A stretch of 60,974 nt of DNA from a virus (Duplodnaviria; Caudoviricetes). The stretch's first letter is position 1, and each line of letters starts with the position of its first letter. The position numbers and the translations under genes are program-made. The stretch lies in the IMG/VR virus record IMGVR_UViG_3300042922_000258, positions 1 to 60,974 of that record. One strand, 5' to 3'. Under the pieces are notes generated by a model that was given only the letters and a program-made list of their open reading frames with translations, searched no databases and was not told the origin of the DNA. This document shows positions 8,121-40,833 of this stretch, piece by piece.

Positions 8121-9137
8121 ATGCCCAATTTGAGCCAAGAGATCGCAATTAACATCATCAACGAGGTAATAAAGATAGTACCGTATTTCGATGTTGATAT
8201 TCAACAGCAAGTCAAACTGAGAGATAAAATTGAAGAGCAATTAAATGATTATGAAGTTACAAGCAAATGTACAGCACTTGCAAGATGTGATATTTTGGAT
8301 AAGGCTTTTATCTATCTTGCATGTAAAAAGCTTGAAGGAATGAAAGAAACAACTCGGTACAATTATACTTTATTACTTAAGAGATTGGACGGGCATTTCA
8401 ATAAACCAATATCCACCATTACCACAATGGATTTGCGAATGTTTCTAGCAAGTGAATACAAAGATAATCAACCGAATAGTTTAAATAGCAAAATAAGCTT
8501 ATTGAAGGCTTTCTTTATTTGGCTACAAGACGAAGGGTATATAGTACAAAATCCCACCAAGAACTTACAACAAGCTAAGGAACCATACCGCAGACGAGGT
8601 CATGTAACACCAATTGATGTCGAAAAGATGCGTGAAGAATGCAAGAGTGTTCGAGATAAGGCATTATTTGAAATCTTACTGTCAACCGGATGCCGCGTAT
8701 CTGAGATTACTAATGCAACACTAGACAAGATAGATTGGCAGAATAACAGCATTGAAGTTATTGGCAAGGGTGATAAGGAACGAATGGTTTATTTCAGCAC
8801 CAGAGCGCGCTTGTTTCTGATTAATTACATATCGGATCGCGAAAAGTCCGGCATACTTAGCAACAGCTTATTTGCAGCAAGCAAGAAGCCGTATTTAAAG
8901 CTAGGGCGCAGAAGTATTGAGCGTATTATAGGCGATATAGCCGAGAGAGCCGGAATTTCATATAGCGTTTTTCCGCATTTAATGAGGCATACGTTTGCAA
9001 CAACCGGTGTCAATCAAGATGTTCCAGTACATATCTTGCAAAAATTAATGGGACATTCAAGTCCTGGAGTTACCGAGAAATATTATGATTTAAACGATAA
9101 TAACATAAAGCAAGAATATAGGAAAATAGCACTTTAA
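8121..9137 (+). CDS. XerC/D-like tyrosine recombinase (second recombinase, in the tail module)
   Basis: TGCRVSE, GKGDKER, HLMRHTFAT, LMGH, TEKYY catalytic set; N-terminal SAM-like domain; own TGnTATAAT promoter near 7975-7983. Confidence 0.92.
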   Translation: MPNLSQEIAINIINEVIKIVPYFDVDIQQQVKLRDKIEEQLNDYEVTSKCTALARCDILDKAFIYLACKKLEGMKETTRYNYTLLLKRLDGHFNKPISTITTMDLRMFLASEYKDNQPNSLNSKISLLKAFFIWLQDEGYIVQNPTKNLQQAKEPYRRRGHVTPIDVEKMREECKSVRDKALFEILLSTGCRVSEITNATLDKIDWQNNSIEVIGKGDKERMVYFSTRARLFLINYISDREKSGILSNSLFAASKKPYLKLGRRSIERIIGDIAERAGISYSVFPHLMRHTFATTGVNQDVPVHILQKLMGHSSPGVTEKYYDLNDNNIKQEYRKIAL

Positions 9138-12253: not shown

Positions 12254-13696
12254 ATAAATTACGATATTGGAATATCAGAAATTGTCTGTACCGAACGTTA
12301 TGAGGATACTGACGGTTTAAGTATTCTTTATGATGCAGAGATTGCTAAACGGCCAAATCAATGTACAAATCCTAAGTGTATGCATCATATCAAACCTCAC
12401 GTTCACGGCTCTAAAACCAATCTCATTAAGGATATTAAATCCGAAGGTAAAATTGTTTTGATTAATCTTAAAATCAACCGTTATCGCTGTCCTGATTGTA
12501 AATATGTCTTTCCAGATGAATTTACTTTCTACGAGAAGAATGAACACATCTCTAAGAGACTTAAACAGGAGTTTGTAAAACGCTGTATTAACGGTGAAAC
12601 ATTCCGTTACATAGCCAACGACTACAGTGTTGATGGTAAGACAGTTGCTAAAGCATTTAATGATTATGCCGATACCCACAGGGATAAAGCCGTATTAACT
12701 TACACCCCTGCAATACTGGGTATTGACGAAGCCCATATCGATGACCATTATCGCCTTGTTCTAACCGATATCTTTAATCATAAGTTGTTAGATATTAAGA
12801 AAGATAATAAAAAGGCTACCGTTAAGGATTACTTGCGAACGTTGGACAAGAACGTCTGCCAGTGTGTTACTATGGACTTAGCAAAAGGTTATGCCTATTG
12901 TGTCAAAGAGGTTCTTCCTGATGCTGTAATCGTTGTTGATAAGTTTCATGTCATTCAAGAGATTAACCGTTGTGTTGATAATGTTCGTAAGGATTTACAA
13001 AACCATTATCGAGGTCAAGGCTATGATATAAGAGTTTTTAAGCAATCCAGAACCCTGTTTATGACCAATTGGGAGGATTTATCACCAAGGGCTACCGATA
13101 AGCTTAATGAATGGTTTAATGAGTTCCCAGAGCTATATGAAGCCTATATGGTTAAAGAAACTTTTCGTGATATCTATGCTAATGCTAAAGACTATATTGA
13201 AGCTTCTAAGATGTTTAATGATTGGCTTTATGCTGTACCTGACTGGGAACGCTTTAGAGCCATGAAAAACACCTTTGCCGACCGTAAGGAGCATATTATC
13301 AACTACTGGAAGTATCAATGGACTAATGCCTATACTGAATCGGTAAACAATTCTATCAAGAAGATTGAAAAAGCTGGACGAGGTTACAAATTTGATGTCC
13401 TACGTGACCGTTGTATACTTTCAATCAATAACCCTGCTCCTGATAAATTCAACCACAAGAATGCTATCTATATATCAAAGAACAAGGGCAGAAGCGTATC
13501 GCAAATGCTTGGATATAAGAGGAAAAAGTCGTTATACGATATTGCTTTAAAACTCAATGTTGACCATCTTAGACCTATTACTTTGTATACTGAAAACACA
13601 AAGGATATTGACAACTTGGTTACTCTTACACCTGAACAGAATCGAATGATTGACTATCTACAAATTCTTGGTCGTAGCATGAGAAGTTCTGATTAG
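12254..13696 (+). mobile_element. ISL3-family DDE transposase (probable ATA start at 12254); no terminal IRs seen
   Basis: CTNPKC...CPDC zinc finger, HTH, GIDE, VTMD, VDKFHV, TNAYTESVNNSIK. The frame is open from the ATA at 12254 behind aggag. Confidence 0.85.
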
Positions 13697-13699
13697 CCC

Positions 13700-14692
13700 C
13701 TATTTGGGGCTTTTCTTATGTACCAGTTTATCTTTCATTATGTAAAACTTTTTATACTGTCTTGTGTATTCATAACTTTTGCCAAAAATATTATTTATAG
13801 CTACAAGAAGTTTTGGTTCATATTGTTGAACCACATTTAATTCAAACTCAAACTCCCTATTAAAAGGACAACCAACACATCCAGTTCTCACAAGCCCATA
13901 TTCCGAATAACATTTACTATGTACAATATTATAATGATTATCGTAATCGCATTTATCTTCATTCTTATACCAAAAAAGAGGTCTGTAATTATCATATGTG
14001 TCACCATTTTCATCAAAACAACTCTTTATTTTATTAGCACGAAGTCCACCTTCTGCCTTTCTCACACCCAGAATATTTAAATCATATTCATTGTCTTTTA
14101 ATAATTTGTGTGCAACATCCTTTTTTGCATATTTACAACATACATTTGATATTGTAAATGTCGGTGGATTTTCTACCATAAATTCTTTAAGCCACTTATT
14201 ATTTCTGATATTGAATTGGTCGGATTTATTTGAGTTACACCACCATTCCAAATATGATTTACAGTTGTCATATTCTTTTAATAATTGTTCTAATGGTTTA
14301 TCTTCAAATTTAAAACCATGTCGCTGTAATCCACTAACCATAATGCTTACCTTTTTACTTAAAAATGGAATGCCATATTCTCTACAACTTGTAGGAATTG
14401 CCTTTATAGCTTTACAGCGTTTTATTTCAATTCCATACTTATTTTCAAGATATATTAAATGTTCTTTGGTGGCTTGATATTCGATTCCAGTATCAAACCA
14501 AACATATTCAATTTTATGTTCTTTGTCACATTTAACACAAATATCAAGCATAACATCACTATCAGAACCACCACTGATTGAACATAATATTTTTTTATAC
14601 TTAGGATTATTTATCTTTGAATATGCTCTTACTAAATTATCACCGATTATTTGATTCTTCGGACAATCTTCTAATATTTCATATAATTCCAT
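13700..14692 (-). CDS. PAPS-reductase-family (PP-loop, Fe-S) protein 1
   Basis: SISGGSDS, DTGIEY, CCKYAKK, GVRKAEG, RTGCVGCP. Confidence 0.9.
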   Translation of the reverse strand: MELYEILEDCPKNQIIGDNLVRAYSKINNPKYKKILCSISGGSDSDVMLDICVKCDKEHKIEYVWFDTGIEYQATKEHLIYLENKYGIEIKRCKAIKAIPTSCREYGIPFLSKKVSIMVSGLQRHGFKFEDKPLEQLLKEYDNCKSYLEWWCNSNKSDQFNIRNNKWLKEFMVENPPTFTISNVCCKYAKKDVAHKLLKDNEYDLNILGVRKAEGGLRANKIKSCFDENGDTYDNYRPLFWYKNEDKCDYDNHYNIVHSKCYSEYGLVRTGCVGCPFNREFEFELNVVQQYEPKLLVAINNIFGKSYEYTRQYKKFYIMKDKLVHKKSPK

Positions 14693-14873
14693 TATCTACT
14701 TGGAGTAAACACGTGTTTCGCTGGTCGACCAAACCCCTTACTCCTTTCTTTAAATACCACAATTTTTATCTATTTCTTATCATTTTACTGATTTATGCCA
14801 TTACCACACCTAATTCCTCGTACCCATATTTTTTTGATGCATAATATCTCCGCATCTATCTTCTCAATTAAAC

Positions 14874-15113
14874 TCATTCAGATACCTCCAATAATTCCGC
14901 TTGTTTATTCCACGCAATACTTGCTTCTCGCAACGTAGTTTTTGATACTCTAAGATTTTTTAATACTTTTAGCTTTACCCTTGGCAATTCATATTCTTTT
15001 CTACATTCCTTGCATCTTATAAAGCAATCACAATCATGCTCATAACGGAAAGGATTTGCCATCAATTTTATATCTCCGCCGCATGAAGGACATTTCTTTA
15101 ATTCAAATTGCAT
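14874..15113 (-). CDS. Lar-like zinc-ribbon protein
   Basis: LKKCPSCG...CKEC...AWN pattern of the restriction-alleviation Lar-like family. Confidence 0.55.
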   Translation of the reverse strand: MQFELKKCPSCGGDIKLMANPFRYEHDCDCFIRCKECRKEYELPRVKLKVLKNLRVSKTTLREASIAWNKQAELLEVSE

Positions 15114-15140
15114 CTGTATTCTCCTTAATCTTATAATCCA

Positions 15141-15605
15141 TTACCTTGCGTACAAGGTCGGCTTCATCCTCGATATTTTCTGGAGTGCCACAAATTTCTG
15201 ATATCGGACATTTATAGCACGTTGGCCTGCTCTCACATATTGCCTTTGCCTTGCGTAAAAACTCAATTGCTCCTGTAATTCTTTCACGCTCCAATCTATT
15301 GCTTGACCACACACCCAACAATGTGTTGTTTTCCACCATGCATAAGCAACTATATTATTTTTGCATGATGGGCATTCTCCTACGTGCTGATTTGCGTGAT
15401 GCTTAGTATCTATTTGATTTGAGACATTTAATGCTTTCTTTGGTATCTGCTTTTCAAGTGCGGATATTGCTAATTCTTGATACATTATCCACTCCTTAAT
15501 ATGTTCCTCTTCACCTTCTGGCAATGGCAAATCCAATTCCTCTTTTGAAAGGCCGAGATTGATTTTAAATTCCTTTATAGCTTTTTCAATTCCTTGCTTA
15601 TTCAT
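15141..15605 (-). CDS. Zinc-ribbon protein (ALEKQIPKK...CGQAIDW family)
   Basis: Paralog of 19844..20125; the 3' end overlaps the next ORF. Confidence 0.55.
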   Translation of the reverse strand: MNKQGIEKAIKEFKINLGLSKEELDLPLPEGEEEHIKEWIMYQELAISALEKQIPKKALNVSNQIDTKHHANQHVGECPSCKNNIVAYAWWKTTHCWVCGQAIDWSVKELQEQLSFYARQRQYVRAGQRAINVRYQKFVALQKISRMKPTLYAR

Positions 15606-15942
15606 CCTTGGCAGCTCCTTTCATTACAATTTCTAATGCTTTAGCAATCGCATATTCCTTGGTTAAATTACCCTTGCTATTTAGAAATTCAAATTCTAGT
15701 TGCTCCACAACCTTATCCACATCATAGGCGGTAGGAACTTGCACTATAAAATTTATAAAGCTATTAATAGAAGCTTCTATGGTGGCATCTACTAATGTTC
15801 CGTGTTGTCTATTAATAATTGCTTGTGCTTGCAAGTCTCTTAACCAATCCATAACTACTTTTCTGCTAATTAAATCACTCATACTAAATTCTCCCTCCCT
15901 CAATCGACAACTGCTTATCCCTAACCGTATGTACGATGCCAT
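15598..15942 (-). CDS. Hypothetical protein (DLISRK...PTAYDVDKVVEQL family)
   Basis: Typical Clostridia phage early protein; the true start is probably MSDLIS. Confidence 0.6.
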   Translation of the reverse strand: MASYIRLGISSCRLREGEFSMSDLISRKVVMDWLRDLQAQAIINRQHGTLVDATIEASINSFINFIVQVPTAYDVDKVVEQLEFEFLNSKGNLTKEYAIAKALEIVMKGAAKDE

Positions 15943-16073
15943 CCTTAATCATAATAGGTCTAATTGTAAAATTGCCTTGGTTATGTTTCCGCAGAAGTAT
16001 TCTTGGGTCTGCGTAGATTGTTACTCTTGGATTGCTCATGTGGGTTCCCCTTTCTTGGAGTTTGATTATCCTC

Positions 16074-17462
16074 CTATGCGAATTTTAATTGTGGTGAGGC
16101 GTTATCTATTGTTACATTCGGCATTCGATCGCCTATCTTAAGATAAGGACATGCTGTCAAGGCAAGCGCTTCCGCCATTATTGGTACAACGCTGTTTCCT
16201 ATCCCTTCGACCTGTTTACTTTTCGGATATGGCTTTCCATTGTCTTGCTTAAAATCAATTATGTAATCCTTTGGGAAGCCTTGTCCTAGCTTTAATTCCT
16301 CCGGCTTAAGCATCCTAAACCAAATATCAACGATCTGATAAGTTACCCCATCGATAACCACGAGCACTAATCCAAACCGGTCCTTTGTAACTATGGTGCC
16401 TATTGGTTCGTTAATACTCTGACCAATACCTTGTCCGTAATATTTGATTAAGAATGCAGATACAAGAGCAAAGTGTCCAGGTGAAGTAGTAATTGTATGT
16501 ATTGGATCAGCTATACTTTGTCCGGTTCCTGTTTTATAAAATTTTGAAAGAAAGCAAGTTATTAAACCATATCTATTTGATGTATCAATTGTCTGTATTG
16601 GATCATTAAGGCTTTGCCCTCTTACTTCTCCTTTTACTGTCTCTGAATGGTACTGGATAAGAAACGGTGTTGCTAATTTGTATGGAATAATAAAACGATT
16701 AGGATCTTCAATAACAAATTTCTTTATACCGGCTGCTATGCGTTTCAGCGTCTTATCTTTTAATGGTGTCTTACGAGTAAATATTGAGCTACCTAAATCT
16801 GTAAAGTCCATATCTTGACTAATTGGTTCCCATGGAAGAAGTCCATTTACACCACATTTTGAATGAGTCTGCTCAGGCCATTTTATCGGTCTGCCATCAC
16901 TTCTGAATTGTCCGTACCATCGTTCTCTGGTTGTATGCGCTCCATAATCAGCGGCAATCAATACCCGATATTCGAACTGATACCCTAATGCTTTCATAAG
17001 CTGAATGAATTTCTGATAGTATTCTCCTTCTCGTTCCTTGATTGGCTTATTGTTTTCATCCAAAGGACCCCACTTCATAAGCTCTTTGACGTTCTCCATC
17101 ATGAGTACTTCTGGTATATTGCCTGTATATTTTTTAATCTGTTTGCATAATCTCCATACACCCATAGGAAGTATACGTAAACCTCTTTCAATCGGTTTAT
17201 TACCTTTTGCCCTGGAATGAGAAGTGCAATCCGGTGAAGCCCACATGAACGGGAGTCTTTGACCCCATTTCAAATATTTTTTAAGATTAACCCTCATAAT
17301 ATCTTCGGTGAAATGATTTGTATCTGGATGATTTTTTAAATGTGCCGCAATAGCATCTGGATCGTGATTAATTGCAATATCAACTTGTCTGCCGAATGCC
17401 ATTTCTATTCCTACGCTTGCTCCACCTCTTCCGGCAAAGCAATCAATTATTAAGTCTTTCAT
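16074..17462 (-). CDS. DNA (cytosine-5) methyltransferase, orphan
   Basis: DCFAGRGG motif I, WASPDC catalytic motif, MENV, TTRER, GNSVVP; no cognate restriction nuclease seen. Confidence 0.9.
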   Translation of the reverse strand: MKDLIIDCFAGRGGASVGIEMAFGRQVDIAINHDPDAIAAHLKNHPDTNHFTEDIMRVNLKKYLKWGQRLPFMWASPDCTSHSRAKGNKPIERGLRILPMGVWRLCKQIKKYTGNIPEVLMMENVKELMKWGPLDENNKPIKEREGEYYQKFIQLMKALGYQFEYRVLIAADYGAHTTRERWYGQFRSDGRPIKWPEQTHSKCGVNGLLPWEPISQDMDFTDLGSSIFTRKTPLKDKTLKRIAAGIKKFVIEDPNRFIIPYKLATPFLIQYHSETVKGEVRGQSLNDPIQTIDTSNRYGLITCFLSKFYKTGTGQSIADPIHTITTSPGHFALVSAFLIKYYGQGIGQSINEPIGTIVTKDRFGLVLVVIDGVTYQIVDIWFRMLKPEELKLGQGFPKDYIIDFKQDNGKPYPKSKQVEGIGNSVVPIMAEALALTACPYLKIGDRMPNVTIDNASPQLKFA

Positions 17463-17839
17463 TGTCTCACCTTTTCCCTCTTTACGCACCAATCAGGAGA
17501 AGTCTTACAACTCTTATTGACTATCCTCTTGGTAATCAGACAAACATTAACTTCAGTTTCATTCGTGTTGAGAACTCTCAAACAATTTTCACAGCCTTGA
17601 CAGCAAGGAGCTTCATACTCCAAATTTGTTCCCCCTTGCGTAACTGTTGACTGCAATCCCCTTGACCGCATGAAAGTATATAAAGCGCTTTCAGCAACTG
17701 CATCATTAAAATGATATTCGATCAACTCCGCAATCTCTCGAACCGAACATCCACGAACAACATACTTGCCAATTTCCTCGATATATGGATCAAATTTACT
17801 CATTTTTAATCGTCTCTTTGGTTTATACGGCGACTTCAT
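17459..17839 (-). CDS. Hypothetical protein with HTH-like and Cys-rich parts
   Basis: GCSVREIAELI; C-terminal Cys cluster. Confidence 0.55.
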   Translation of the reverse strand: MKSPYKPKRRLKMSKFDPYIEEIGKYVVRGCSVREIAELIEYHFNDAVAESALYTFMRSRGLQSTVTQGGTNLEYEAPCCQGCENCLRVLNTNETEVNVCLITKRIVNKSCKTSPDWCVKREKVRQ

Positions 17840-18164
17840 GATTATCCCTCGCTTTCGGATTTAATCTTAGGCAAATATCATCCCATTCCGTTTTAAATTC
17901 TTCGCTTATCGCAAACGCTTCAACTTCCGGTTCAATAATCTTGCCGTCAAGCAATCGTCTGCTGATTATGTATCGCTTATTTAACACATATCCGCTCTGT
18001 GCATATTGGACAACTTTATCTTTGGGGATTTTCAATAATTCATATGCAACGCATAATTTAACATCTGTAAGTACATATTGCTCGATTGTCCTATCGTAAA
18101 CCGAATAACAATATTTTGTATTAACACCCATTGCGATTCTCCTTTTCTTTATGGTTGGCTTCAA
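17823..18164 (-). CDS. Hypothetical protein
   Basis: ORF in operon orientation. Confidence 0.5.
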   Translation of the reverse strand: MKPTIKKRRIAMGVNTKYCYSVYDRTIEQYVLTDVKLCVAYELLKIPKDKVVQYAQSGYVLNKRYIISRRLLDGKIIEPEVEAFAISEEFKTEWDDICLRLNPKARDNHEVAV

Positions 18165-18354
18165 TAATCATCACCAATTCAACTAAAATTTTTATGCATA
18201 ACTCAAACGGATGCTGACTTTCGATTGCGTGTGCATCGTCGAGAACGAGTTGCCAATTATCAATCTCCTTGACAGCAATCCATTTGGTATAAAATTTATA
18301 TGTGTCGCTGAATATTAATCTGACTTGTTCTTGTGTTGGATTAGAAACCCTCAT
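18121..18354 (-). CDS. Hypothetical protein
   Basis: RBS gaggtg; 77 aa. Confidence 0.55.
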   Translation of the reverse strand: MRVSNPTQEQVRLIFSDTYKFYTKWIAVKEIDNWQLVLDDAHAIESQHPFELCIKILVELVMIIEANHKEKENRNGC

Positions 18355-18371
18355 TCCTAATTCACCTCTTC

Positions 18372-19310
18372 CTAATACTTAACATTAATGTAATCTAAAA
18401 CTTCTCCCAACCCCAACTTGTTAATACAGTAATCATATTGTTTCGGGTGGGTTTCCTTCATCATTTGAAATCGGTTAGGCTCTTTTTCGAGGTGAACCCC
18501 AAACATACAGAACATACAACCTGTCCTTTTACATTTTGATGTGGTTAAATGACTCATACAGCCGTCTAGGCAAGTTTGTCCTTGCAATTGGTCACCTTCG
18601 ATTATTTCTCCGTAACATGAAGCTATTTGAAGGTTGTTTTGCATGATGTAGTGTAGTATGTCTTGTTCTGTCCAGAATGATAGTGGGTTTGATACTGGAT
18701 TTTTATTACAAAATGCGTTGCATCCTTGTTTTAACCATGTCGCTTCTCTTTGTTGACTTTCGTCTGTCATTGTTCCAATGATTGCTTTTTTACCGGATAT
18801 CTTTCCATATTCCTTTACTGGCTTTTTTTTCATAACATTGCAACACTGGTCTGATATTTTAAATGGTGAGTCTATTATTGATTTCCATTTTCCCATATTA
18901 TAAAACCCTTCTTCTCTTCCGTTAAAACAGCCCCAGGCCCAACAACTTTTACCATGTAATTTAACATCGTGTATTTGTCTGCTTGCCATTTTGCTAATCA
19001 CTGGATATCCATATTTCTCAATCACTTGCTTAAAATTCATCTTTGGTCTAAGCCATGCGACATTATCAAATGTCTTTACGAAATCCCTTATCTCTGGATA
19101 TTCCAACCCTGTATCAACAAATACCGCTTCAACATCCGGATACATCTGCCGTACAATATGTAATAGCACCGTGCTGTCTTTGCCTCCAGAGAAGGAAACA
19201 TATACTTGACCGTTCCAATGTTCATACCATTCTTTGATCCGCTCTTGTGTCTTACGTATTTTAACTTCCAAAGGCAAGGCTTGGAGTTGTTGTAACTGCC
19301 ACTTTTCCAT
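18372..19310 (-). CDS. PAPS-reductase-family (PP-loop, Fe-S) protein 2
   Basis: SFSGGKDSTVL, DTGLEYPE, CCNVMKK, RTGCMFC. Confidence 0.9.
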   Translation of the reverse strand: MEKWQLQQLQALPLEVKIRKTQERIKEWYEHWNGQVYVSFSGGKDSTVLLHIVRQMYPDVEAVFVDTGLEYPEIRDFVKTFDNVAWLRPKMNFKQVIEKYGYPVISKMASRQIHDVKLHGKSCWAWGCFNGREEGFYNMGKWKSIIDSPFKISDQCCNVMKKKPVKEYGKISGKKAIIGTMTDESQQREATWLKQGCNAFCNKNPVSNPLSFWTEQDILHYIMQNNLQIASCYGEIIEGDQLQGQTCLDGCMSHLTTSKCKRTGCMFCMFGVHLEKEPNRFQMMKETHPKQYDYCINKLGLGEVLDYINVKY

Positions 19311-32358: not shown

Positions 32359-33588
32359 ATGATATACTTGAAATACGAATATCTAGACTATAAATATACG
32401 ACTTATTATAATGAGACCCTTAATTTGTGGGTTTCTGCAATCAACATGGGCAAGGATACTTTTGGAAAAAGAAAACGCAAAGTACTATACGGAGACACCG
32501 AAAAGGATGTTATTAAAAAAGCAAATTCAATTATAATTGACATGAATAATGGAGATTATATGGAACCAAACAAGGATTCCCTTATATGCTTCTTAAAGGA
32601 ATACCACAGAATTAGAGCCGGATGCGATATGTGGAAACCAAACTATAAAATGCCGGAAGACGCTAAATGGGAAGAAAACACAGCTTTGCTGAACAAAATG
32701 TATATTGACGTTCACTTCGAACCTTATTTTAAGGAAATAAAACTTACCGATATTAAACCGGTCACACTGGACAAGTTTTATAATTATAAACTATCAACAC
32801 CGGGTGAATATGAAGTTATGATAAAAGGCAAAAAGGTAAAAAAGGAACGTCCTCCGCTTAGCATGAATACCGTTATTAAGTTGGATAAGTTTCTCAAATC
32901 ATCCTTTTACTATGCTATAAAAAATGGGATGTTGAAAAATAACCCAACGACTGGAGTTGTCGTTCTTGGCAAGAAGAAAAAATATAAGCCAACCGTATTC
33001 AATAAGGAACAGTTTTTAAAACTACTTCAATCGGTTGAGGGCACGGATGATGAAATCCCTATTATTTTAGGTGGAGGATGCGGCCTTAGACGAGGGGAAA
33101 TATTCGGGCTTAAATGGGAAAATGTTGATTTTGATTCCGGTACGATTACAATTGAAAACACAATGATAAGATTTAAGAGCACGAAAGATAAAGATGGTGC
33201 TAAGAATGAACAAAGCGCAAGAACTATAATTATTCCAAAATATGTTTTGGACACATTAAATAATTATAAAATTAAAATAAGCCCAAATGATGCTGACAAG
33301 ATTATAACAAGGTGGAAACCTGGAAGCTACTCAGAACGGTACGGCATATTATTAGACCGCTTCGATTTACCTCATACAAGATTGCATGACCTACGTCACT
33401 ACAATGCAGTTATTATGATGAATAAGGGCATTCCGGATAAGGCCGCAGCAGAATTTTTAGGCCATAAAGATACGCAGATGCTACACGATGTATACCAGCA
33501 TGTCCAAGAAGAAATGAAACAGAAAACAGCTGATACCATTAATGAAATGTTTAAAAAGAAAAATAGCCATGAACCCCGGGAAGAGTAG
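32359..33588 (+). CDS. int: Phage integrase (tyrosine recombinase)
   Basis: GLRRGE, HDLRH, LGH, VYQH; adjacent attP. Confidence 0.93.
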   Translation: MIYLKYEYLDYKYTTYYNETLNLWVSAINMGKDTFGKRKRKVLYGDTEKDVIKKANSIIIDMNNGDYMEPNKDSLICFLKEYHRIRAGCDMWKPNYKMPEDAKWEENTALLNKMYIDVHFEPYFKEIKLTDIKPVTLDKFYNYKLSTPGEYEVMIKGKKVKKERPPLSMNTVIKLDKFLKSSFYYAIKNGMLKNNPTTGVVVLGKKKKYKPTVFNKEQFLKLLQSVEGTDDEIPIILGGGCGLRRGEIFGLKWENVDFDSGTITIENTMIRFKSTKDKDGAKNEQSARTIIIPKYVLDTLNNYKIKISPNDADKIITRWKPGSYSERYGILLDRFDLPHTRLHDLRHYNAVIMMNKGIPDKAAAEFLGHKDTQMLHDVYQHVQEEMKQKTADTINEMFKKKNSHEPREE

Positions 33589-35266: not shown

Positions 35267-35451
35267 ACACTTACTATCCATTATCACTCGGTTAATATCC
35301 GGGTGATTTTTTATGCGCAAAACAACCCGTCCCTACACATTTCTATTAAATTCTATAAATATTTAATAAAATCATGCAACTTCTATCAACCATTAACATA
35401 GAATATATCAAAAGCAATGTTAATCACATATAGAAATTAATAGGAGGGAAT

Positions 35452-36336
35452 ATGGTATTAGGGTGTGATATAGGAAACCAATTTATAAAAGATAGCCAGC
35501 ATAAGATTTTTAAATCGTGTTTTACTTATCAAGACACATCACTATCAGATATAAATAAAATTACAATCGATGGATTGGACCACTTCTTTGGAGTTGGAAA
35601 TCCTACTGTCGATATAGATAAAATAGACGCGCCAATAAACAAAATAGGTATACTATCAAGCATTGCAATGTGTGGCTCGAATGAATATTACATAGTGGTT
35701 GGACTGCCGATTACTCAATACAAGGCAAAGAAGGAACGACTCCGCAATATGGTAATGTCGTACAATGGATGCGATATAATTTACAATGGGAGGAAAATTA
35801 ATTATCACATTAGGGACGTTGGGGTTTGTCCGCAGGGAATTGGAGCACTATACACTATCAATTCTTCCAGCGATAGAATACTTTTCGATATAGGAAGCTA
35901 CACAATAAATGTGGCATTAATTGAATATTCAAATGGAAATCCCAAGATAATTAAATCCGACACCTGGTATAGCGGCGTGCTCAATTTATATCAGAGAGTA
36001 ATTGAAGAGATTAATCGAAAATTTGACTTAACATTAAAACCAAGTTACGCAGAAAAAGTCTTATCAACTGGTGAACTTTCCATTGACGGCAGCCCTTGCG
36101 ATTTGAAGTTTTTGAAACCAATTATTTCAGATTATCTGGATCCGGTGTTTACTCAATTCAAGCTTAAGTACGATGAATACAAAACGGTCCCAACTACTTT
36201 AATCGGTGGAGGGGCGGAATTATTACACGGAGCCTTCGAACGGACCGTAAAGAACTGTGAGATCATAGAAGACTCACAATTCGCAAACGCCTTGGGGTAC
36301 CATCGTTATGGTATAGATAAATTTATATGCAGATAA
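35452..36336 (+). CDS. ParM/StbA-family actin-like ATPase
   Basis: GCDIGN, VVGLP, PQG, FDIGSYTIN, IGGGA, SQFANALGY actin-fold motifs. Confidence 0.9.
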   Translation: MVLGCDIGNQFIKDSQHKIFKSCFTYQDTSLSDINKITIDGLDHFFGVGNPTVDIDKIDAPINKIGILSSIAMCGSNEYYIVVGLPITQYKAKKERLRNMVMSYNGCDIIYNGRKINYHIRDVGVCPQGIGALYTINSSSDRILFDIGSYTINVALIEYSNGNPKIIKSDTWYSGVLNLYQRVIEEINRKFDLTLKPSYAEKVLSTGELSIDGSPCDLKFLKPIISDYLDPVFTQFKLKYDEYKTVPTTLIGGGAELLHGAFERTVKNCEIIEDSQFANALGYHRYGIDKFICR

Positions 36337-36347
36337 GGAGGTGGATT

Positions 36348-36557
36348 ATGGGGGATATTATTCCGGCTTATTTTTCCAAAGACGAAAAAGAACTACAAGA
36401 AAAAATTATTGCTTCAGCTAAGCGAAAGCACACTTCGAAAAGTAGTTGGATGAAAGATGCGGCGGCCGAGAAAATCGAAAGAGAAGAAAATCAAAATACT
36501 GCTGTCAAGCAAAAACCACAGAGTAGTAAATTTAATAATCTACTTGACGATTTATAA
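36348..36557 (+). CDS. ParR-like ribbon-helix-helix adaptor
   Basis: Immediately follows ParM; IPAYFSKDEKEL...SKSSWMKDAA.EKI; low-complexity tail. Confidence 0.65.
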   Translation: MGDIIPAYFSKDEKELQEKIIASAKRKHTSKSSWMKDAAAEKIEREENQNTAVKQKPQSSKFNNLLDDL

Positions 36558-36916
36558 AAATAACCCCATGCGACACTTTGGACGGTCGACGCACAGGGTT
36601 AAGATTGGCCAATACGAAATCAGCTATATCTATTATAGCATAATCTACTATCATTTCAATAAAAATCATACCCTTATTTCAGGGTGCACCTATCCCATCG
36701 AGATAAACAAAGGATTTGTTTATCCTTATGCAACGATTTTCAAAAAAATGCATGTCTCATGTAGCATTTACGAAAAATATTTTAATACCCCATAAAAACA
36801 CCGATAAGTCTAACTAAAGAAAGTATCAATACGATTCCGGCGTATGGCATTATTAATCACCTCGTTTCTGAGAAAAATATGTATTTTTGATTTATTATTT
36901 TAAGGAGGAATAACTT

Positions 36917-37144
36917 ATGGATTTTGGAGGAATGGATAAATTATTTGAGTATTTTTTTAACACAGTTGTTCACATTGGTAAGTATGTTATCGCTGTAAAA
37001 ATGGCTAGTAACCTAATGAAAGATTATGAGGCTGGAAATTTTAGAGATATGATTCAGGATTTTATCGGCGGCGGTTTCGCATTTGGAGCGTTAACCTTTA
37101 TTCTCGAATTTCTTGATAAAGTTTCTATTACTATGAACAAATAA
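36917..37144 (+). CDS. Small membrane protein (pilin/VirB2-like hydropathy)
   Basis: RBS aggagg; two hydrophobic segments separated by a short charged loop. Confidence 0.6.
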   Translation: MDFGGMDKLFEYFFNTVVHIGKYVIAVKMASNLMKDYEAGNFRDMIQDFIGGGFAFGALTFILEFLDKVSITMNK

Positions 37145-37157
37145 AGGAGGCGTTCGC

Positions 37158-37343
37158 ATGGTAGTTGAGTTTTTAGTAGGTTGGGCCGTTATTACGGCGA
37201 TACTAAAGGTTTATGTTACGAAAAAGGATATCGAATTGAAAATAAATATTGATATTGTGATATTAATACTAGCTCTTATTCTCTCCGGATTTCTGACACT
37301 TATGCAAGCGGGAGCAATAGTTCTCTACAATTTAGCATTTTAA
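37158..37343 (+). CDS. Small two-TM protein
   Basis: RBS aggagg; very hydrophobic, 61 aa. Confidence 0.65.
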   Translation: MVVEFLVGWAVITAILKVYVTKKDIELKINIDIVILILALILSGFLTLMQAGAIVLYNLAF

Positions 37344-37357
37344 GGAGGAGGTTGTAA

Positions 37358-37726
37358 TTGTATTTATCAAAAGTTTTATTTGGTGTTAACAGTGTCACAA
37401 GTGGAGATCCCAGTAATCCATCAAGGGGAATATTGGAAAATGCTTATAACAATTTTACGGAAGATTTTAAAACAGCAATTATGGAAAGTTGGCATGCTAT
37501 CGGTAAAAGCATTCATGATGGTTTAGTAACATTCGGAGAATCAGTTTTGAAAGGTTTAGTTTTTTTACTAGAGCCGCTCGTTAACTTTGGTTGCAAGTCA
37601 GTGATATTATATTGCATAATTATATATTACTGTACGGATGGTCAAGACAAAACAACTATAAAGCTCGGTCTCAAAGCATTATTAATTTTTATAATCTTTG
37701 AATATCTCAGGGGTACAATTTTATGA
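37358..37726 (+). CDS. Membrane protein coupled to the ATPase
   Basis: RBS aggagg; C-terminal TM pair; ATGA overlap with the ATPase. Confidence 0.65.
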   Translation: MYLSKVLFGVNSVTSGDPSNPSRGILENAYNNFTEDFKTAIMESWHAIGKSIHDGLVTFGESVLKGLVFLLEPLVNFGCKSVILYCIIIYYCTDGQDKTTIKLGLKALLIFIIFEYLRGTIL

Positions 37727-40041
37727 AAAGTATGAAGATGAATGAACTAGTTGAATTTTTAAATCCAAAATACGTCTACATTCAACTGATACCAACATTC
37801 TCAGTACGAAACTACAAAAGCGATGATTTTATATCTATGATCGCGCGACTTTATGTAAAGATTGATGACCGGATAGATGCAATTAATAAAAAATTAATTA
37901 TTGAAGGTGACGCTAAGTTGGGTTATTACATACATATGGAGAAAAATCAGGACCCGGAATTATCGGGGGTCAATTTTTACTTTGTAATTCCGGAGAAACA
38001 CTTTAAAATGTTTGAGGATAAAATTTATGAAACCTGGTCAAATAAGATCGACTTTAAACAAGTTGATACAATTCCGGATTTTGATATTAATTGTTCTATC
38101 TATACACTTGATTATAAAAGGAACGACGCGTTTAGTTTGACTTGCGATAAACGAGATAATGAATTATTGGTTCGACAGTTAAATACATTACACATCATGG
38201 AGACCGGCGATAAGGTTGGGGTATTTTATAATTTTATGCCGATGAACCAAAAGTTTTGGAAATCGAACTGGGATAATAATATCAAGGATTTAAAGGAAGG
38301 GATTACAAATCTCCGCTGCACCACCAAAACCGGTGCTTTTATAATGGCGATAATTAATTGGTCGATGAAATTGTCCGACTCAATCATTGCCGCACTCGTG
38401 GGGGCAAAAAAGGAGGCGTTAACAAAGCGCCTCCCGGTAAAGGATTTAGAAATTAGTCGTTGGACTCTCAAAAAACGTGATGAATATATTGCTAAGTGTC
38501 AAATACTTTGCTTTAGTCAAAGTCCGGACCACTCTAGGGAGCGCGCAAACGGACTCACGCTATGTCACAGCTTCGAGTGTCTAAGTGAAAACAATACGTT
38601 AGATTTTAAAAAATTAAATCCAAAACACAATAAAAAAATTAATTTACACGATAGTAAAATCAAATATACGCCTTCCTTTTGTATTCAACCAGGAGAAGGT
38701 CAGAGTTTTATTGGTTTGCCTGGCAGGGAGCCACTTGAACGATTCCCTATCATCCGGAGGATTGAGTCTTTGCAATGCGACACACCGGTGGAGCTGCGAA
38801 CTGGCGTGATCGCGATAGGTTATAACAAATATTACAACGGGGAAATCATCAAAACATATTTACCGTCCTCCGCCAGGGAACGTTGTTGGCTCCTTTTAAT
38901 TTTAGGACCTACGAGAGCCGGTAAAACAAATCTTATTGGAAACATATCAAAAGACGCAACAGAAGGTGGTGAGTGCACTATACTTTTTGACATATGTGGT
39001 CATTGTGAATTATCGGATGCCGTGACAGAGATTGTCGGAAAAAAGAAAGTTCTGAATATTGATTGTTCTGACATAGATAATTTACAGGGTATGGGATACA
39101 ATGAGGTTCCAATTAATCTTGATAATTCATTCTATCAATATGAAAGTGCTAAAATTAAAGCTTCTCAGCTCAAAAATTTGATGAATTCAGTAAATGACGA
39201 CGACCGAGATCTTAAGGCAAAGATGAATAAACTAATAAACGCCGCATCACTCATCGTGTTCATCAATAACGGAAGCATTAACGAAGTTTTCCGAGTTCTA
39301 TTAAGTTATAACATCAGAGAAAAATATATTCGGTTGATACCGACAGAACAAAAAGAAAATCTCGCAGATAGCATAAGTGTATTAAGGGAACTTAATGAAA
39401 AATACTCACAAGGGAAACCAACGGGTGAGTCAAAAATGACACCGGCGGTCAGTGGTATTATGGACCGTCTTGATAGCTTAAAAACAAATACATACATGGA
39501 GTTTATGCTAAAAAAGGATTGTACAAATAATATTTGCTTGACTGATGAAATTCAGAAAAATCAGGTTATCTGTTTGAGAATTCCGGAAAAATTATTCTCA
39601 ACTCCGCCAGAAAAAGACGCCTTCTGCGTTTACTGGATGACAAAAATATGGCTCGCGGTAAAGATTAGAGATGATAACCTGCCAAGGGAAAAACACGTTA
39701 AAGTTAATCTAGTTGTCGATGAACTATCTCAGGTCCCACACACAGAAGCATTTTTAAAGAGCATACTTTCTCAAATGGCGAAATTTACTTGTAAAACCAT
39801 AGTGTCTGCACATTACTTAAATCAGTTAAAAATTATACGTCAGGAGGTTCGGAGCGCGAACGCGTCCTATATGATGTTAGCTGGTTGTGACAGGGAAAAT
39901 TATGATGATCTTAAGCATGAGTTTGATCCGTACACGGTCGATGATTTATTGCATCTAAAAGAGTTTACCAGTTTAAATCTGATTAAAACTGGAAACGGAT
40001 TTGTAAAATTTATTACACAACTGCCACCTAAAATATTATAA
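37723..40041 (+). CDS. Large P-loop ATPase of the VirB4/TraG/HerA-FtsK superfamily
   Basis: Walker A GPTRAGKT, LFD, Walker B LVVDE, VSAHYLNQ; long N-terminal region as in VirB4. Confidence 0.75.
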   Translation: MKSMKMNELVEFLNPKYVYIQLIPTFSVRNYKSDDFISMIARLYVKIDDRIDAINKKLIIEGDAKLGYYIHMEKNQDPELSGVNFYFVIPEKHFKMFEDKIYETWSNKIDFKQVDTIPDFDINCSIYTLDYKRNDAFSLTCDKRDNELLVRQLNTLHIMETGDKVGVFYNFMPMNQKFWKSNWDNNIKDLKEGITNLRCTTKTGAFIMAIINWSMKLSDSIIAALVGAKKEALTKRLPVKDLEISRWTLKKRDEYIAKCQILCFSQSPDHSRERANGLTLCHSFECLSENNTLDFKKLNPKHNKKINLHDSKIKYTPSFCIQPGEGQSFIGLPGREPLERFPIIRRIESLQCDTPVELRTGVIAIGYNKYYNGEIIKTYLPSSARERCWLLLILGPTRAGKTNLIGNISKDATEGGECTILFDICGHCELSDAVTEIVGKKKVLNIDCSDIDNLQGMGYNEVPINLDNSFYQYESAKIKASQLKNLMNSVNDDDRDLKAKMNKLINAASLIVFINNGSINEVFRVLLSYNIREKYIRLIPTEQKENLADSISVLRELNEKYSQGKPTGESKMTPAVSGIMDRLDSLKTNTYMEFMLKKDCTNNICLTDEIQKNQVICLRIPEKLFSTPPEKDAFCVYWMTKIWLAVKIRDDNLPREKHVKVNLVVDELSQVPHTEAFLKSILSQMAKFTCKTIVSAHYLNQLKIIRQEVRSANASYMMLAGCDRENYDDLKHEFDPYTVDDLLHLKEFTSLNLIKTGNGFVKFITQLPPKIL

Positions 40042-40233
40042 TGAGTAGTATCTTAAATATAATCAACTATGAAGACGGCAGAGCAAAATTTGTTACGAAG
40101 TTACCAAAACCAATACAATAATAATAAAACATTGCTGTCAAACAAGAGCATCCGAGAGGGTGCTTTTTGTGTATATTCTATTGCTATCGCTGCAATAAAA
40201 ATGCCGGATCACTCCGACAAATTTATACTATAC

Positions 40234-40833
40234 TTATTTATTTATTTGCCGTTCCTCGGCATTAACAATATACTCAGGCATATTTAAAATTAGGTTCGCG
40301 GTAAAATTCAATTTATCCGTTAACTCTTGTCGTAATAACATTTCTTTAATTTGATTATCGGTCAGGGTTGCATCGCGCTTCTTGTAAAATTCAATTATAT
40401 CGGCTTTGTTATTATTCCAGTAGAGTTTTATTCCGTTAAGGGATTCTAATATGTCTTTATATTGATATAGTAGATTTGAAAAGTGATCTCGCAAAGCGAT
40501 GGTTTCGTTCTCCGTGTAGAATACGTCCTCCGTCCAGGTTAAAACACTTTTAAATCCAACACTGCATAGGTTAGTCAATCTAGTATATTCTGGATTGGAT
40601 GTGACCACACGCGCCTTGTCTTCTATTAAATCCGATTTATCAATTCCAAAATATTCTGCTAAAATTTCAATTTTATCAATCCTCGGATATACATTGCCGT
40701 TTACCCAATCAGCGAATGTTGAATAGCTAAATCCTAAGTCTTTACAGATGTCATTTCTCGATTTCTTATTGATATCCATATACGTTTTAAGATTACTCGA
40801 CATAATTTTCTTATTCATAATCCCATCATTCAT
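40234..40833 (-). CDS. CI-like XRE repressor with non-peptidase C-terminal domain (switch 2)
   Basis: NLKTYM...SRNDICKDLGFSYSTFADW..G..YPRIDKIE.LA.YFGI.KSDLIE. Confidence 0.88.
   Translation of the reverse strand: MNDGIMNKKIMSSNLKTYMDINKKSRNDICKDLGFSYSTFADWVNGNVYPRIDKIEILAEYFGIDKSDLIEDKARVVTSNPEYTRLTNLCSVGFKSVLTWTEDVFYTENETIALRDHFSNLLYQYKDILESLNGIKLYWNNNKADIIEFYKKRDATLTDNQIKEMLLRQELTDKLNFTANLILNMPEYIVNAEERQINK

Follow-up and report, generated by a model that had tools for sequence, protein, structure and literature searches.

What use would a temperate tailed phage have for an actin-like ATPase of the plasmid-partition type, and for the small membrane proteins and large ATPase encoded just behind it? 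The question is raised by a virus record of 60,974 nucleotides (IMG/VR IMGVR_UViG_3300042922_000258; Duplodnaviria, Caudoviricetes), which we analysed over its whole length and refer to as the window. Six genes of this window, called the block below, encode a ParM-like protein, a small protein of the ribbon-helix-helix (RHH) kind, three further small proteins and an ATPase of 772 amino acids (aa). We found that the block is a new Clostridia-type member of a cassette already noticed in Bacillus phages, and very probably an intact representative of an accessory cassette conserved among phages and prophages whose hosts are endospore-forming Bacillota. Sequence comparison gives good support to an obligatory core made of two membrane proteins, here named A and B, and a VirB4-family ATPase. 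New in this picture are the assignment to VirB4 on the strength of the N-terminal fold, a core defined as A, B and the ATPase, fusions to the wall-hydrolase domain M23, a tubulin-like gene at the ParM position in some loci, and the association with SpoIVA-positive hosts. The genes of the block are as follows.

35452-36336, plus strand: actin-like (ALP/ParM-like) ATPase gene, parM, 294 aa
36327-36557, plus strand: RHH-like gene, putatively for a ParR-like adaptor or regulator, 76 aa, overlapping parM by 10 nt
36917-37144, plus strand: membrane protein gene of the A family, 75 aa, a leaderless copy
37158-37343, plus strand: small membrane protein gene, 61 aa, two transmembrane (TM) segments
37358-37726, plus strand: TM-hairpin gene of the B family, 122 aa, TTG start, without M23
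37723-40041, plus strand: VirB4-like ATPase gene, 772 aa, overlapping the B gene by 4 nt; residues ~1-350 form the VirB4-type N-terminal domain and ~352-772 the P-loop motor domain

A first-pass annotation, made from the letters alone, had drawn the same six open reading frames (ORFs), and its coordinates and quoted motifs were borne out, with all six on the plus strand. It had also described a tight operon with strong ribosome-binding sites, which holds for the 75-, 61- and 122-aa genes. These genes and parM are preceded by AGGAGG-type sites, while the ATPase start has a weak site and the 4-nt overlap with the gene before it. Translational coupling of the ATPase gene to B is well supported. 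Of the three small proteins that the annotation called hydrophobic, those of 61 and 122 aa deserve the description, and the 75-aa protein is only weakly so.

The VirB4-like ATPase

The translation of the largest gene contains a Walker A motif (GPTRAGKT) and a Walker B motif (LVVDE). Across 42 sequences, the Walker residues G395, G400, K401 and E667 were invariant and D666 was kept in at least 90%. The phage family phrog_5156, whose function is unannotated, matched the protein over its full length (5.2e-73), and the PADLOC model mad8 matched the motor domain (5.4e-10). At E ≤ 0.1, the sole Pfam matches were AAA_14 and TrwB_AAD_bind, the latter at 16.1 bits where the cut-off is 20.5, and NCBIfam returned only SXT_TraD (0.082). 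Nothing better than E 0.08 was found when solved structures were searched by sequence. Kyte-Doolittle analysis with a 19-residue window, which we used for all hydrophobicity estimates, gave the ATPase no TM segment of its own. Its homologues are full-length proteins of ~750-800 aa from Clostridia and Bacillales, mostly labelled 'hypothetical'. Among 1.84 billion representatives they fall into 339 clusters at E ≤ 1e-30, a number that rises to 898 when the threshold is relaxed to E ≤ 1e-10.

We then relied on predicted structure. An AlphaFold2 model of the full-length ATPase was built on 42 homologues (predicted local distance difference test, pLDDT, 87.4), and its best Foldseek match was TrwK/VirB4 of R388 (E 7.7e-14). 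Aligned with VIA-align, the C-terminal domain (352-772) scored highest against the VirB4 of T. pseudethanolicus (4ag5; Z 27.4, root-mean-square deviation (rmsd) 3.5 over 336 residues), nearly tied with DndH-C (Z 26.0), TrwB (25.8) and HerA (24.7). The HerA subunits of the Sir2-HerA and DUF4297-HerA defence complexes reached Z 19-21 against the motor domain. Because the scores for VirB4, DndH, TrwB and HerA are nearly equal, the C-terminal domain alone cannot settle the family. When the N-terminal domain was folded alone (pLDDT 84.3), its 12 best Foldseek matches were all TrwK/VirB4 chains. Against TrwK residues 33-400 it scored Z 14.6 (245 residues, rmsd 3.6), with the next match at Z 8.4 in a search of 48,161 representative chains. 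The N-terminal domain decides the matter: on predicted models rather than solved structures, the 772-aa protein is a VirB4-type ATPase. By the same models it is not a VirD4/TraG coupling protein, contrary to annotations and to a paper of 2012 (PMC3357382). The VirB4-like reading of the first-pass annotation was thereby sustained for both domains, through Foldseek and VIA-align on AlphaFold2 models.

One relative looks interrupted in its present record. In the Clostridium phage phiCp-D, the ATPase is annotated as two ORFs of 179 and 631 aa (L001:5974-8389), named 'lipid A export...' and 'coupling protein', which jointly match the whole window ATPase. To judge from the sequence, the split is a frameshift or a sequencing error.

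Core, membrane proteins and filament genes

We compared the block with 45 genome loci and 80 viral loci, scoring their neighbourhoods with hidden Markov models (HMMs) built from the window proteins and their relatives. Features were counted at loci with at least 3.5 kb of upstream sequence, namely 40 genome and 66 viral loci. A, B and the ATPase occurred together in all 40 genome loci, and of the 66 viral loci 64 had A and 65 had B. Matches to the ATPase spanned almost the entire protein at most of the 45 genome and 80 viral loci, and its frame was open, with no internal stop, in every match shown by the genome searches. The ratio of nonsynonymous to synonymous substitution (dN/dS) lay at 0.03-0.29 for the ATPase, A and B (9 of 11 pairs with dS unsaturated). 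In several prophages the cassette stands directly after the endolysin gene.

The B family is defined by a TM hairpin with a short Gly-x-Lys-Lys-Gly-like loop. The window copy, which carries the hairpin at its C-terminus, matches the family HMM at 1.1e-15, and an Atlas search with the B protein returned no named family. Fusions of B to M23, a peptidoglycan peptidase, are frequent in Bacillales, mostly with M23 at the N-terminus (L009:7356-7997 and L011:7365-7997) and with a C-terminal M23 in L035:6308-6901. By HMM, the M23 domain was present in 23 of 40 genome loci and 31 of 66 viral loci. Pfam confirmed it in 8 of 27 aligned B proteins (best 4.9e-28), and the HxxxD and HxH motifs are present. 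In either fusion order, M23 would lie outside the cell if the basic hairpin loop is cytoplasmic. Gene order and the 4-nt overlap between the ATPase gene and that of the hairpin protein are the sole pointers to a possible docking of the ATPase on B as on a VirB3-like small membrane protein. A complex prediction for the N-terminal domain of the ATPase with B scored 0.00, which is under the mark and says nothing either way.

Relatives of A are usually ~130 aa long, with a long leader that ends in an Ala-x-Ala-like site and is followed by two hydrophobic helices. In the 75-aa window protein, the first helix is low in hydrophobicity, and the analysis gave no hydrophobic segment at a threshold of 1.6 and one at 1.5. 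Homology of A to pilins did not rise above control level in Pfam, Atlas or hhalign comparisons. Among 31 members, one matched T4SS_pilin in Pfam, at 0.062; one neighbour cluster in the Atlas carried TrbC on 17% of its members, with a score of 0.88; and hhalign against seven T4SS_pilin ORFs gave 38%, compared with 28.5% for an unrelated control. The 61-aa protein, with two clear TM segments, is an extra small membrane protein that was otherwise seen only in the closest relative, L046.

Upstream of the core, the actin-like ATPase gene proposed in the first-pass annotation is real. Its 294-aa product scored above the Pfam cut-offs for ALP_N (43.6 bits against 26.3; 4.5e-11) and MreB-like_C (34.7 against 27.8; 3e-8), matched phrog_691 'partition protein' at 4.8e-39, and is homologous to gp27.9 of phage SPO1 (phmmer 1.6e-6). 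It is not an equivalog of R1 ParM (PRK13917, 52.1 bits against a cut-off of 417). The 76-aa protein gave sub-threshold matches of the RHH type (DUF6290, 4.4e-4; YlcI_YnfO_N, 0.0031; RelB antitoxin, 0.0038). It aligned in the expected register with the RHH family of related loci, at an hhalign probability of 33%.

An RHH gene was detected upstream in 29 of 40 genome loci and 30 of 66 viral loci, and it is retained without ParM in SPP1 (gp31) and in several genome loci. A tubulin-like gene was detected upstream in 2 of 40 genome loci and 3 of 66 viral loci, and its position was checked in one of them. In this Paenibacillus prophage (L025:5864-6940), a gene of the tubulin/FtsZ family (Pfam Tubulin, 2.2e-14) occupies the ParM position, ~2.1 kb upstream of the ATPase. 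A homologue with 79% identity is encoded in a second Paenibacillus prophage (L028:5861-6940). It is well supported that an RHH protein usually precedes the core and that a gene for a cytomotive filament, mostly ParM-like and now and then tubulin-like, precedes the RHH gene in ~35-50% of loci. The expectation that parM and the ATPase operon go together was thus right in part. They co-occur far above chance and in a fixed order, also in the virulent SPO1, but the filament gene is optional.

Carriers, hosts and the phage around the block

The cassette is present in two well-known virulent phages. In the myovirus SPO1 it comprises gp27.9 ('partition protein'), gp27.8, the tiny hydrophobic gp27.7-27.5, gp27.4 (906 aa) and the relaxase-like gp27.3. 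The siphovirus SPP1 has an RHH-like gene 31, gene 31.1 with an A-like layout, gene 31.2 with a B-like hairpin, and gene 32 (836 aa). The window ATPase matched SPO1 gp27.4 in tblastn at 2e-7, with 20.7% identity over 59% of the query and 95% coverage in SPO1L4, and gp27.4 matched SPP1 gene 32 at 6e-28. The small membrane proteins of SPO1 and SPP1 are alike in kind to those of the window, and the A and B HMMs do not detect them. The same arrangement was seen in D6E, in which an integrase and the ParM-ATPase pair are both present, in phiCp-D, where parM lies on the opposite strand ~5 kb off, in TPDSL_ph2 and TP-84, and in a 58-kb Clostridium estertheticum plasmid with an endolysin gene. This plasmid, pCF005-C (locus L144), is typed as non-mobilizable, and its cassette adjoins an endolysin amidase and helix-turn-helix (HTH) regulators. 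It is probably an episomal prophage, that is, a phage-plasmid.

Parts of the cassette have been discussed before. The excerpts of Pathria et al. (2012; PMC3357382) drawn on here name the version in 0305phi8-36 and SPO1 a 'DNA translocation operon', whose products are given as a relaxase, an ATPase of the coupling kind, and proteins resembling VirB6 and MreB. They take the ATPase as a coupling protein of the VirD4/TraG type and report that deletion of an island with the operon from 0305phi8-36 caused no detectable growth defect. According to the portions used of Godinho et al. (2018; PMC6316719), SPP1 gp32 is non-essential, its C-terminus resembles TrwB, VirB4 and FtsK, and it was proposed to form a translocon with gp31.1 and gp31.2. 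A 2026 article on SPO1 'virospores' (PMC12991052) names the ParM gene 27.9 as a possible entrapment factor. An annotation-level passage of PMC8878798 notes that, in phages of B. anthracis, a TrwB-like gene lies downstream of that for the endolysin. Our literature search, with supplements outside it, found only annotation-level mentions of the cassette's function and no experimental work on it.

Hosts of the carriers are almost uniformly endospore formers. Among 50,697 phage records, the window ATPase had 37 tblastn matches (Bacillus 30, Geobacillus 3, 'Deep-sea thermophilic' 2, Clostridium 1, Terrisporobacter 1). SPO1 gp27.4 had 146 (Bacillus 133, Geobacillus 5, Deep-sea 2, Lysinibacillus 2, and Alicyclobacillus, Brevibacillus, Clostridium and Microcystis 1 each). 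As a control, the window terminase matched phages of Lactococcus (40) and Streptococcus (33) in the same collection. Plasmid matches were all from Clostridium (31 of 31); 30 of them were typed as non-mobilizable, and many were 40-60 kb long. The 45 genome loci came from Paenibacillus, Bacillus and allies, Sporosarcina, Clostridium, Desulfitobacterium, Lacrimispora and similar genera.

We also asked how the ATPase is distributed relative to the sporulation gene product SpoIVA. Among 401 genomes drawn evenly from the class of a Neobacillus host, 17 carried the ATPase at E ≤ 1e-10, and all 17 were SpoIVA-positive compared with 272 of the 401 overall (Fisher p = 0.0012, or 0.0017 without the centre genome, in a comparison that ignores phylogeny). 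In the class of a Clostridium host, the ATPase was found in 5 of 399 genomes, all five of them SpoIVA-positive, in a count confined to these carriers. The restriction to spore formers that the first-pass annotation had named as a check therefore fits, with endospore-forming hosts throughout except for two records. These two matches outside Bacillota are the Microcystis phage record and a partial protein (P0118) in a metagenome-assembled genome of 'Candidatus Nitrosocosmicus', and they may be contamination, binning errors or real exceptions.

The window itself is nearly complete as a phage genome (CheckV completeness 98%). The block stands between a tyrosine integrase (32359-33588) and a lipoprotein gene on its upstream side, and a CI-type repressor (40234-40833, minus strand), a Cro-like gene and a VapE-type primase downstream. 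ARAGORN found no tRNA in the window, which leaves no tRNA clue to the attachment site, and no phage record matched with near-identical DNA. The sole sequencing run listed as holding the record is soil-metagenome DNA, possibly its source, and no RNA run is listed. Non-coding and regulatory features in and around the block are given below.

35283-35307, plus strand: terminator-like hairpin after the upstream lipoprotein gene, with a 9-pair stem and then a T-run
35341-35436: five copies of TTCTAT/ATAGAA as inverted and direct repeats, in the parM promoter region
36558-36916: non-coding spacer of 359 bp between the RHH gene and the membrane-protein genes, with no convincing ORF
40050-40115, plus strand: diverged duplicate of the last ~22 ATPase codons (profile match 4.2e-4, positions 736-757)
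40144-40167, plus strand: terminator-like hairpin ending the unit

The two hairpins bracket the block, and the first marks the start of a separate transcription unit. From their sequence and position, the repeats are a candidate operator or parC-like centromere. No Rfam family was found anywhere in the window, the spacer included. The best sigma-70-like promoter of the region lies within the spacer on the minus strand (36632-36659; 11 of 12 positions, with an extended -10 TG). It is directed back at the RHH and parM genes and may drive an antisense transcript. The vestigial ATPase copy begins just past the ATPase stop codon and is closed by three stop codons. It has the look of a trace left by recombination in which the 3' end of the ATPase gene was replaced.

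Elsewhere in the window, we noted a second, Xer-like tyrosine recombinase (8121-9137) and a transposase of the ISL3 family (12380-13696). On the minus strand, within a leftward group of genes, 13700-19310 holds two genes for PAPS-reductase-like proteins (13700-14692 and 18372-19310) and one for a C5 cytosine methylase (16074-17492). The PAPS-reductase-like proteins and the methylase may modify DNA.

Function and comparison with known systems

How phage genomes enter spores is an old question, and the cassette offers a concrete candidate factor. The phage phi29 reportedly uses the host's Spo0J and parS for this purpose, and beyond this case few phage-encoded spore-entry factors are known to us. 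As the foremost of the explanations considered, we propose tentatively that the cassette is a DNA conduit with a role in sporulation, a proposal that we think more apt to be wrong than right. In such a mechanism, hexamers of the ATPase would be held at the membrane by A and B, which would build a minimal conduit that crosses membrane and wall, with M23, where present, opening the peptidoglycan locally. The RHH protein would bind a site on the phage genome, perhaps the five repeats at 35341-35436, and the filament would deliver the phage DNA so marked to the pole or septum that holds the conduit. The ATPase would then drive its substrate, either phage DNA or a protein, through the envelope. Judged by host range, the cassette might thereby help the phage genome to enter or stay in the forespore while the host sporulates. 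Sporulation is suggested as the setting by that host range together with the lack of need for the cassette in laboratory lytic growth, and a forespore role would in turn explain this dispensability.

Stated for tailed phages of endospore formers in general, virulent and temperate alike, the proposal is that they carry a minimal VirB4-powered conduit that moves the genome across the sporulation septum into the forespore, which would make 'virospore' formation phage-encoded rather than a passive accident. This generalization is doubtful. Equally speculative is the layout that it would imply, in which a conduit of pilin-like, hairpin (with or without M23) and VirB4-like proteins is supplied by an RHH adaptor and by a filament for which actin-like and tubulin-like proteins are interchangeable. 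Taken as a single statement, the identity of the cassette, the conduit mechanism and the sporulation role together fall a little short of evenly balanced.

Several observations weigh against this proposal. We infer the DNA substrate, the conduit and the sporulation link alike. No curated VirB4 model in Pfam or NCBIfam matched the ATPase at E ≤ 0.1, and A appears pilin-like by layout alone, namely a long leader and two hydrophobic helices with a short polar loop. The window copy of A is without the leader, and that of B is without M23. A ParM-like gene stands upstream at 20 of the 40 genome loci and 23 of the 66 viral loci; because roughly half of the loci do without ParM, the core cannot depend on a filament to bring in DNA. 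We found no relaxase or coupling protein among the neighbour proteins scanned, and recognised no VirB6- or VirB8-like protein beside the ATPase, the models of these two not having been searched across the window. The first-pass annotation had likewise recognised none of the four. In canonical systems, to our knowledge, VirB4 alone is not known to move DNA.

The link to sporulation has weaknesses of its own. Seven of the 17 ATPase-positive genomes had E > 1e-30 and partial profile coverage, and the ten at E ≤ 1e-30 were all SpoIVA-positive. Genome taxonomy was hidden in the SpoIVA statistics, which are blind to phylogeny, and the SpoIVA-negative genomes are probably a few large clades. Exact Spo0A boxes numbered 19 in 141 kb near cassettes (0.13/kb) compared with 48 in 651 kb elsewhere (0.07/kb), a difference too weak to use, and the sole exact box in this region of the window lies inside the ATPase gene.

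Other explanations must be set against the conduit proposal. The block may instead hold two independent modules, with ParM and the RHH protein serving as the type II partition system of an episomal prophage and the VirB4-like cassette an unrelated neighbour in the same variable region. That ParM is missing at 20 of the 40 genome loci and 43 of the 66 viral loci fits this explanation, as do the 359-bp spacer that divides the two gene sets in the window and the phiCp-D parM, which lies on the opposite strand ~5 kb away. The plasmid matches also fit, being all from Clostridium (31/31) and in many cases of 40-60 kb, with the one inspected having an endolysin and probably being a phage-plasmid; the Xer-like recombinase at 8121-9137 could resolve dimers of such an episome. 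However, filament, RHH protein, small membrane proteins and ATPase follow one another in the same order all the way from prophages of Clostridia to SPO1, a virulent phage without a plasmid state. In L025 the ParM position is taken by a tubulin-like gene, whose homologue in L028 is 79% identical, the RHH gene remains beside the cassette where ParM is missing (SPP1 gp31 and several genome loci), and D6E has an integrase in addition to the ParM-ATPase pair. We regard independent modules as rather unlikely. Decay, the outcome named by the first-pass annotation as one that would overturn its reading, is a different matter. A fragment of an integrative conjugative element (ICE), now without function, would account for the presence of only VirB4-like, pilin-like and hairpin proteins, with the rest of a type IV system missing among the neighbours scanned. 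The ORFs are intact in all loci examined, dN/dS of 0.03-0.29 indicates purifying selection, the catalytic Walker residues are invariant, and the family numbers 339 clusters at E ≤ 1e-30 and reaches virulent phages. We therefore rejected this explanation as extremely improbable.

Two further explanations keep the cassette intact and give it another task. As a superinfection-exclusion or anti-phage device, a membrane-anchored ATPase complex acting early in infection or from the prophage would block or expel foreign DNA. The position of the block is in keeping with this, in a variable region between the lysis/integrase genes and the repressor where prophages usually hold such genes, and a lipoprotein gene stands just upstream. 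So are the mad8 match on the motor domain (5.4e-10), the structural scores against DndH-C (Z 26.0) and defence HerA proteins (Z 19-21), and the finding, in the excerpts cited above, that the cassette is non-essential for growth (PMC3357382, PMC6316719). Against it, the N-terminal domain is VirB4-specific and is neither a HerA barrel nor a domain of a defence system. Among 8 block proteins, PADLOC found no other defence component, MADS included, its remaining matches being to HTH models of a generic kind and confined to the upstream regulator. It is not evident why such a device should need a cytomotive filament, an RHH protein or a wall hydrolase of the M23 type, and the device would leave the restriction to spore-forming hosts unexplained. 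We consider it unlikely. Conjugation-like, virion-independent spread between touching cells, suggested by Pathria et al. (2012) and given as a second option in the first-pass annotation, would suit the VirB4 fold, the M23 fusions and, according to the excerpts of PMC3357382, the relaxase-like nickase that adjoins the ATPase in SPO1 and 0305phi8-36. Neither the window nor the 45 genome loci hold a homologue of that relaxase-like protein (SPO1 gp27.3), and Replic_Relax (PF13814) is absent from the whole window. The neighbours scanned include no coupling protein, no VirB6- or VirB8-like channel part was recognised beside the ATPase, and 30 of 31 carrier plasmids are typed as non-mobilizable. Spread by contact is thus very unlikely.

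Whatever its role, the cassette would be an example of a VirB4-family motor that works with very few partners, syntenic with a gene for an actin-like or tubulin-like filament, and it bears on the ways in which type IV and DNA-partition systems combine. It is widespread, under purifying selection and present in the tractable models SPP1 and SPO1. If superinfection exclusion were its true function, it would still be a new type of such device.

The closest known systems are the cassettes of SPO1 (gp27.9-27.4), 0305phi8-36 (orf201-207) and SPP1 (gp31-32). Their ATPases are homologous to that of the window, with the window protein and the profile both in phrog_5156. The small membrane proteins are likewise encoded directly upstream, with overlapping stop and start codons, and an RHH-like gene precedes them; in SPO1, the upstream actin-like gene is also homologous to that of the window. 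In contrast to SPO1 (gp27.3) and 0305phi8-36 (orf200), the window is without the relaxase-like gene, a nickase that is also absent from SPP1 as annotated. It further differs from SPO1 and SPP1 in that the phage is temperate and stems from a soil metagenome, in that the closest relatives are in Clostridia, in its leaderless A, and in the extra 61-aa membrane protein.

On the partition side, ParMRC is the type II partition system of plasmid R1, and AlpC/AlpA is the actin-like system of the Corynebacterium prophage CGP3. The window resembles ParMRC and phage actin-like systems in having an actin-fold ATPase followed by a small, overlapping and probable RHH gene, with short repeats upstream of parM. 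It departs from ParMRC in that its actin-like protein scores far below the ParM equivalog cut-off, and in that its gene is syntenic with a VirB4-like membrane cassette and has a tubulin-like substitute in L025.

On the secretion side, the window ATPase shares with the conjugative VirB4 proteins (TrwK of R388 and that of T. pseudethanolicus) a two-domain architecture, a length of ~770-800 aa and the lack of an intrinsic TM segment. In both cases genes for small TM proteins stand just ahead of the ATPase gene, and a wall hydrolase is associated in many relatives of the cassette. Unlike these proteins, the window ATPase is without a match to a curated model and without VirB6, VirB8, VirD4 or relaxase partners found beside it, and its cassette travels on tailed phages, virulent ones included, and on plasmids typed as non-mobilizable. 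A comparable VirB4 system is that of ICEBs1, with ConC, ConD and ConE and the wall hydrolase CwlT. The Ced system, by which Crenarchaeota import DNA, has a VirB4/HerA-like ATPase, CedB, and the small membrane proteins CedA1 and CedA2. Likened here by description, Ced differs in being cellular rather than viral and in having a larger polytopic CedA, of which we saw no counterpart in the window. It provides a precedent for a VirB4-like ATPase that moves DNA with a few small membrane proteins and without VirD4 or a relaxase.

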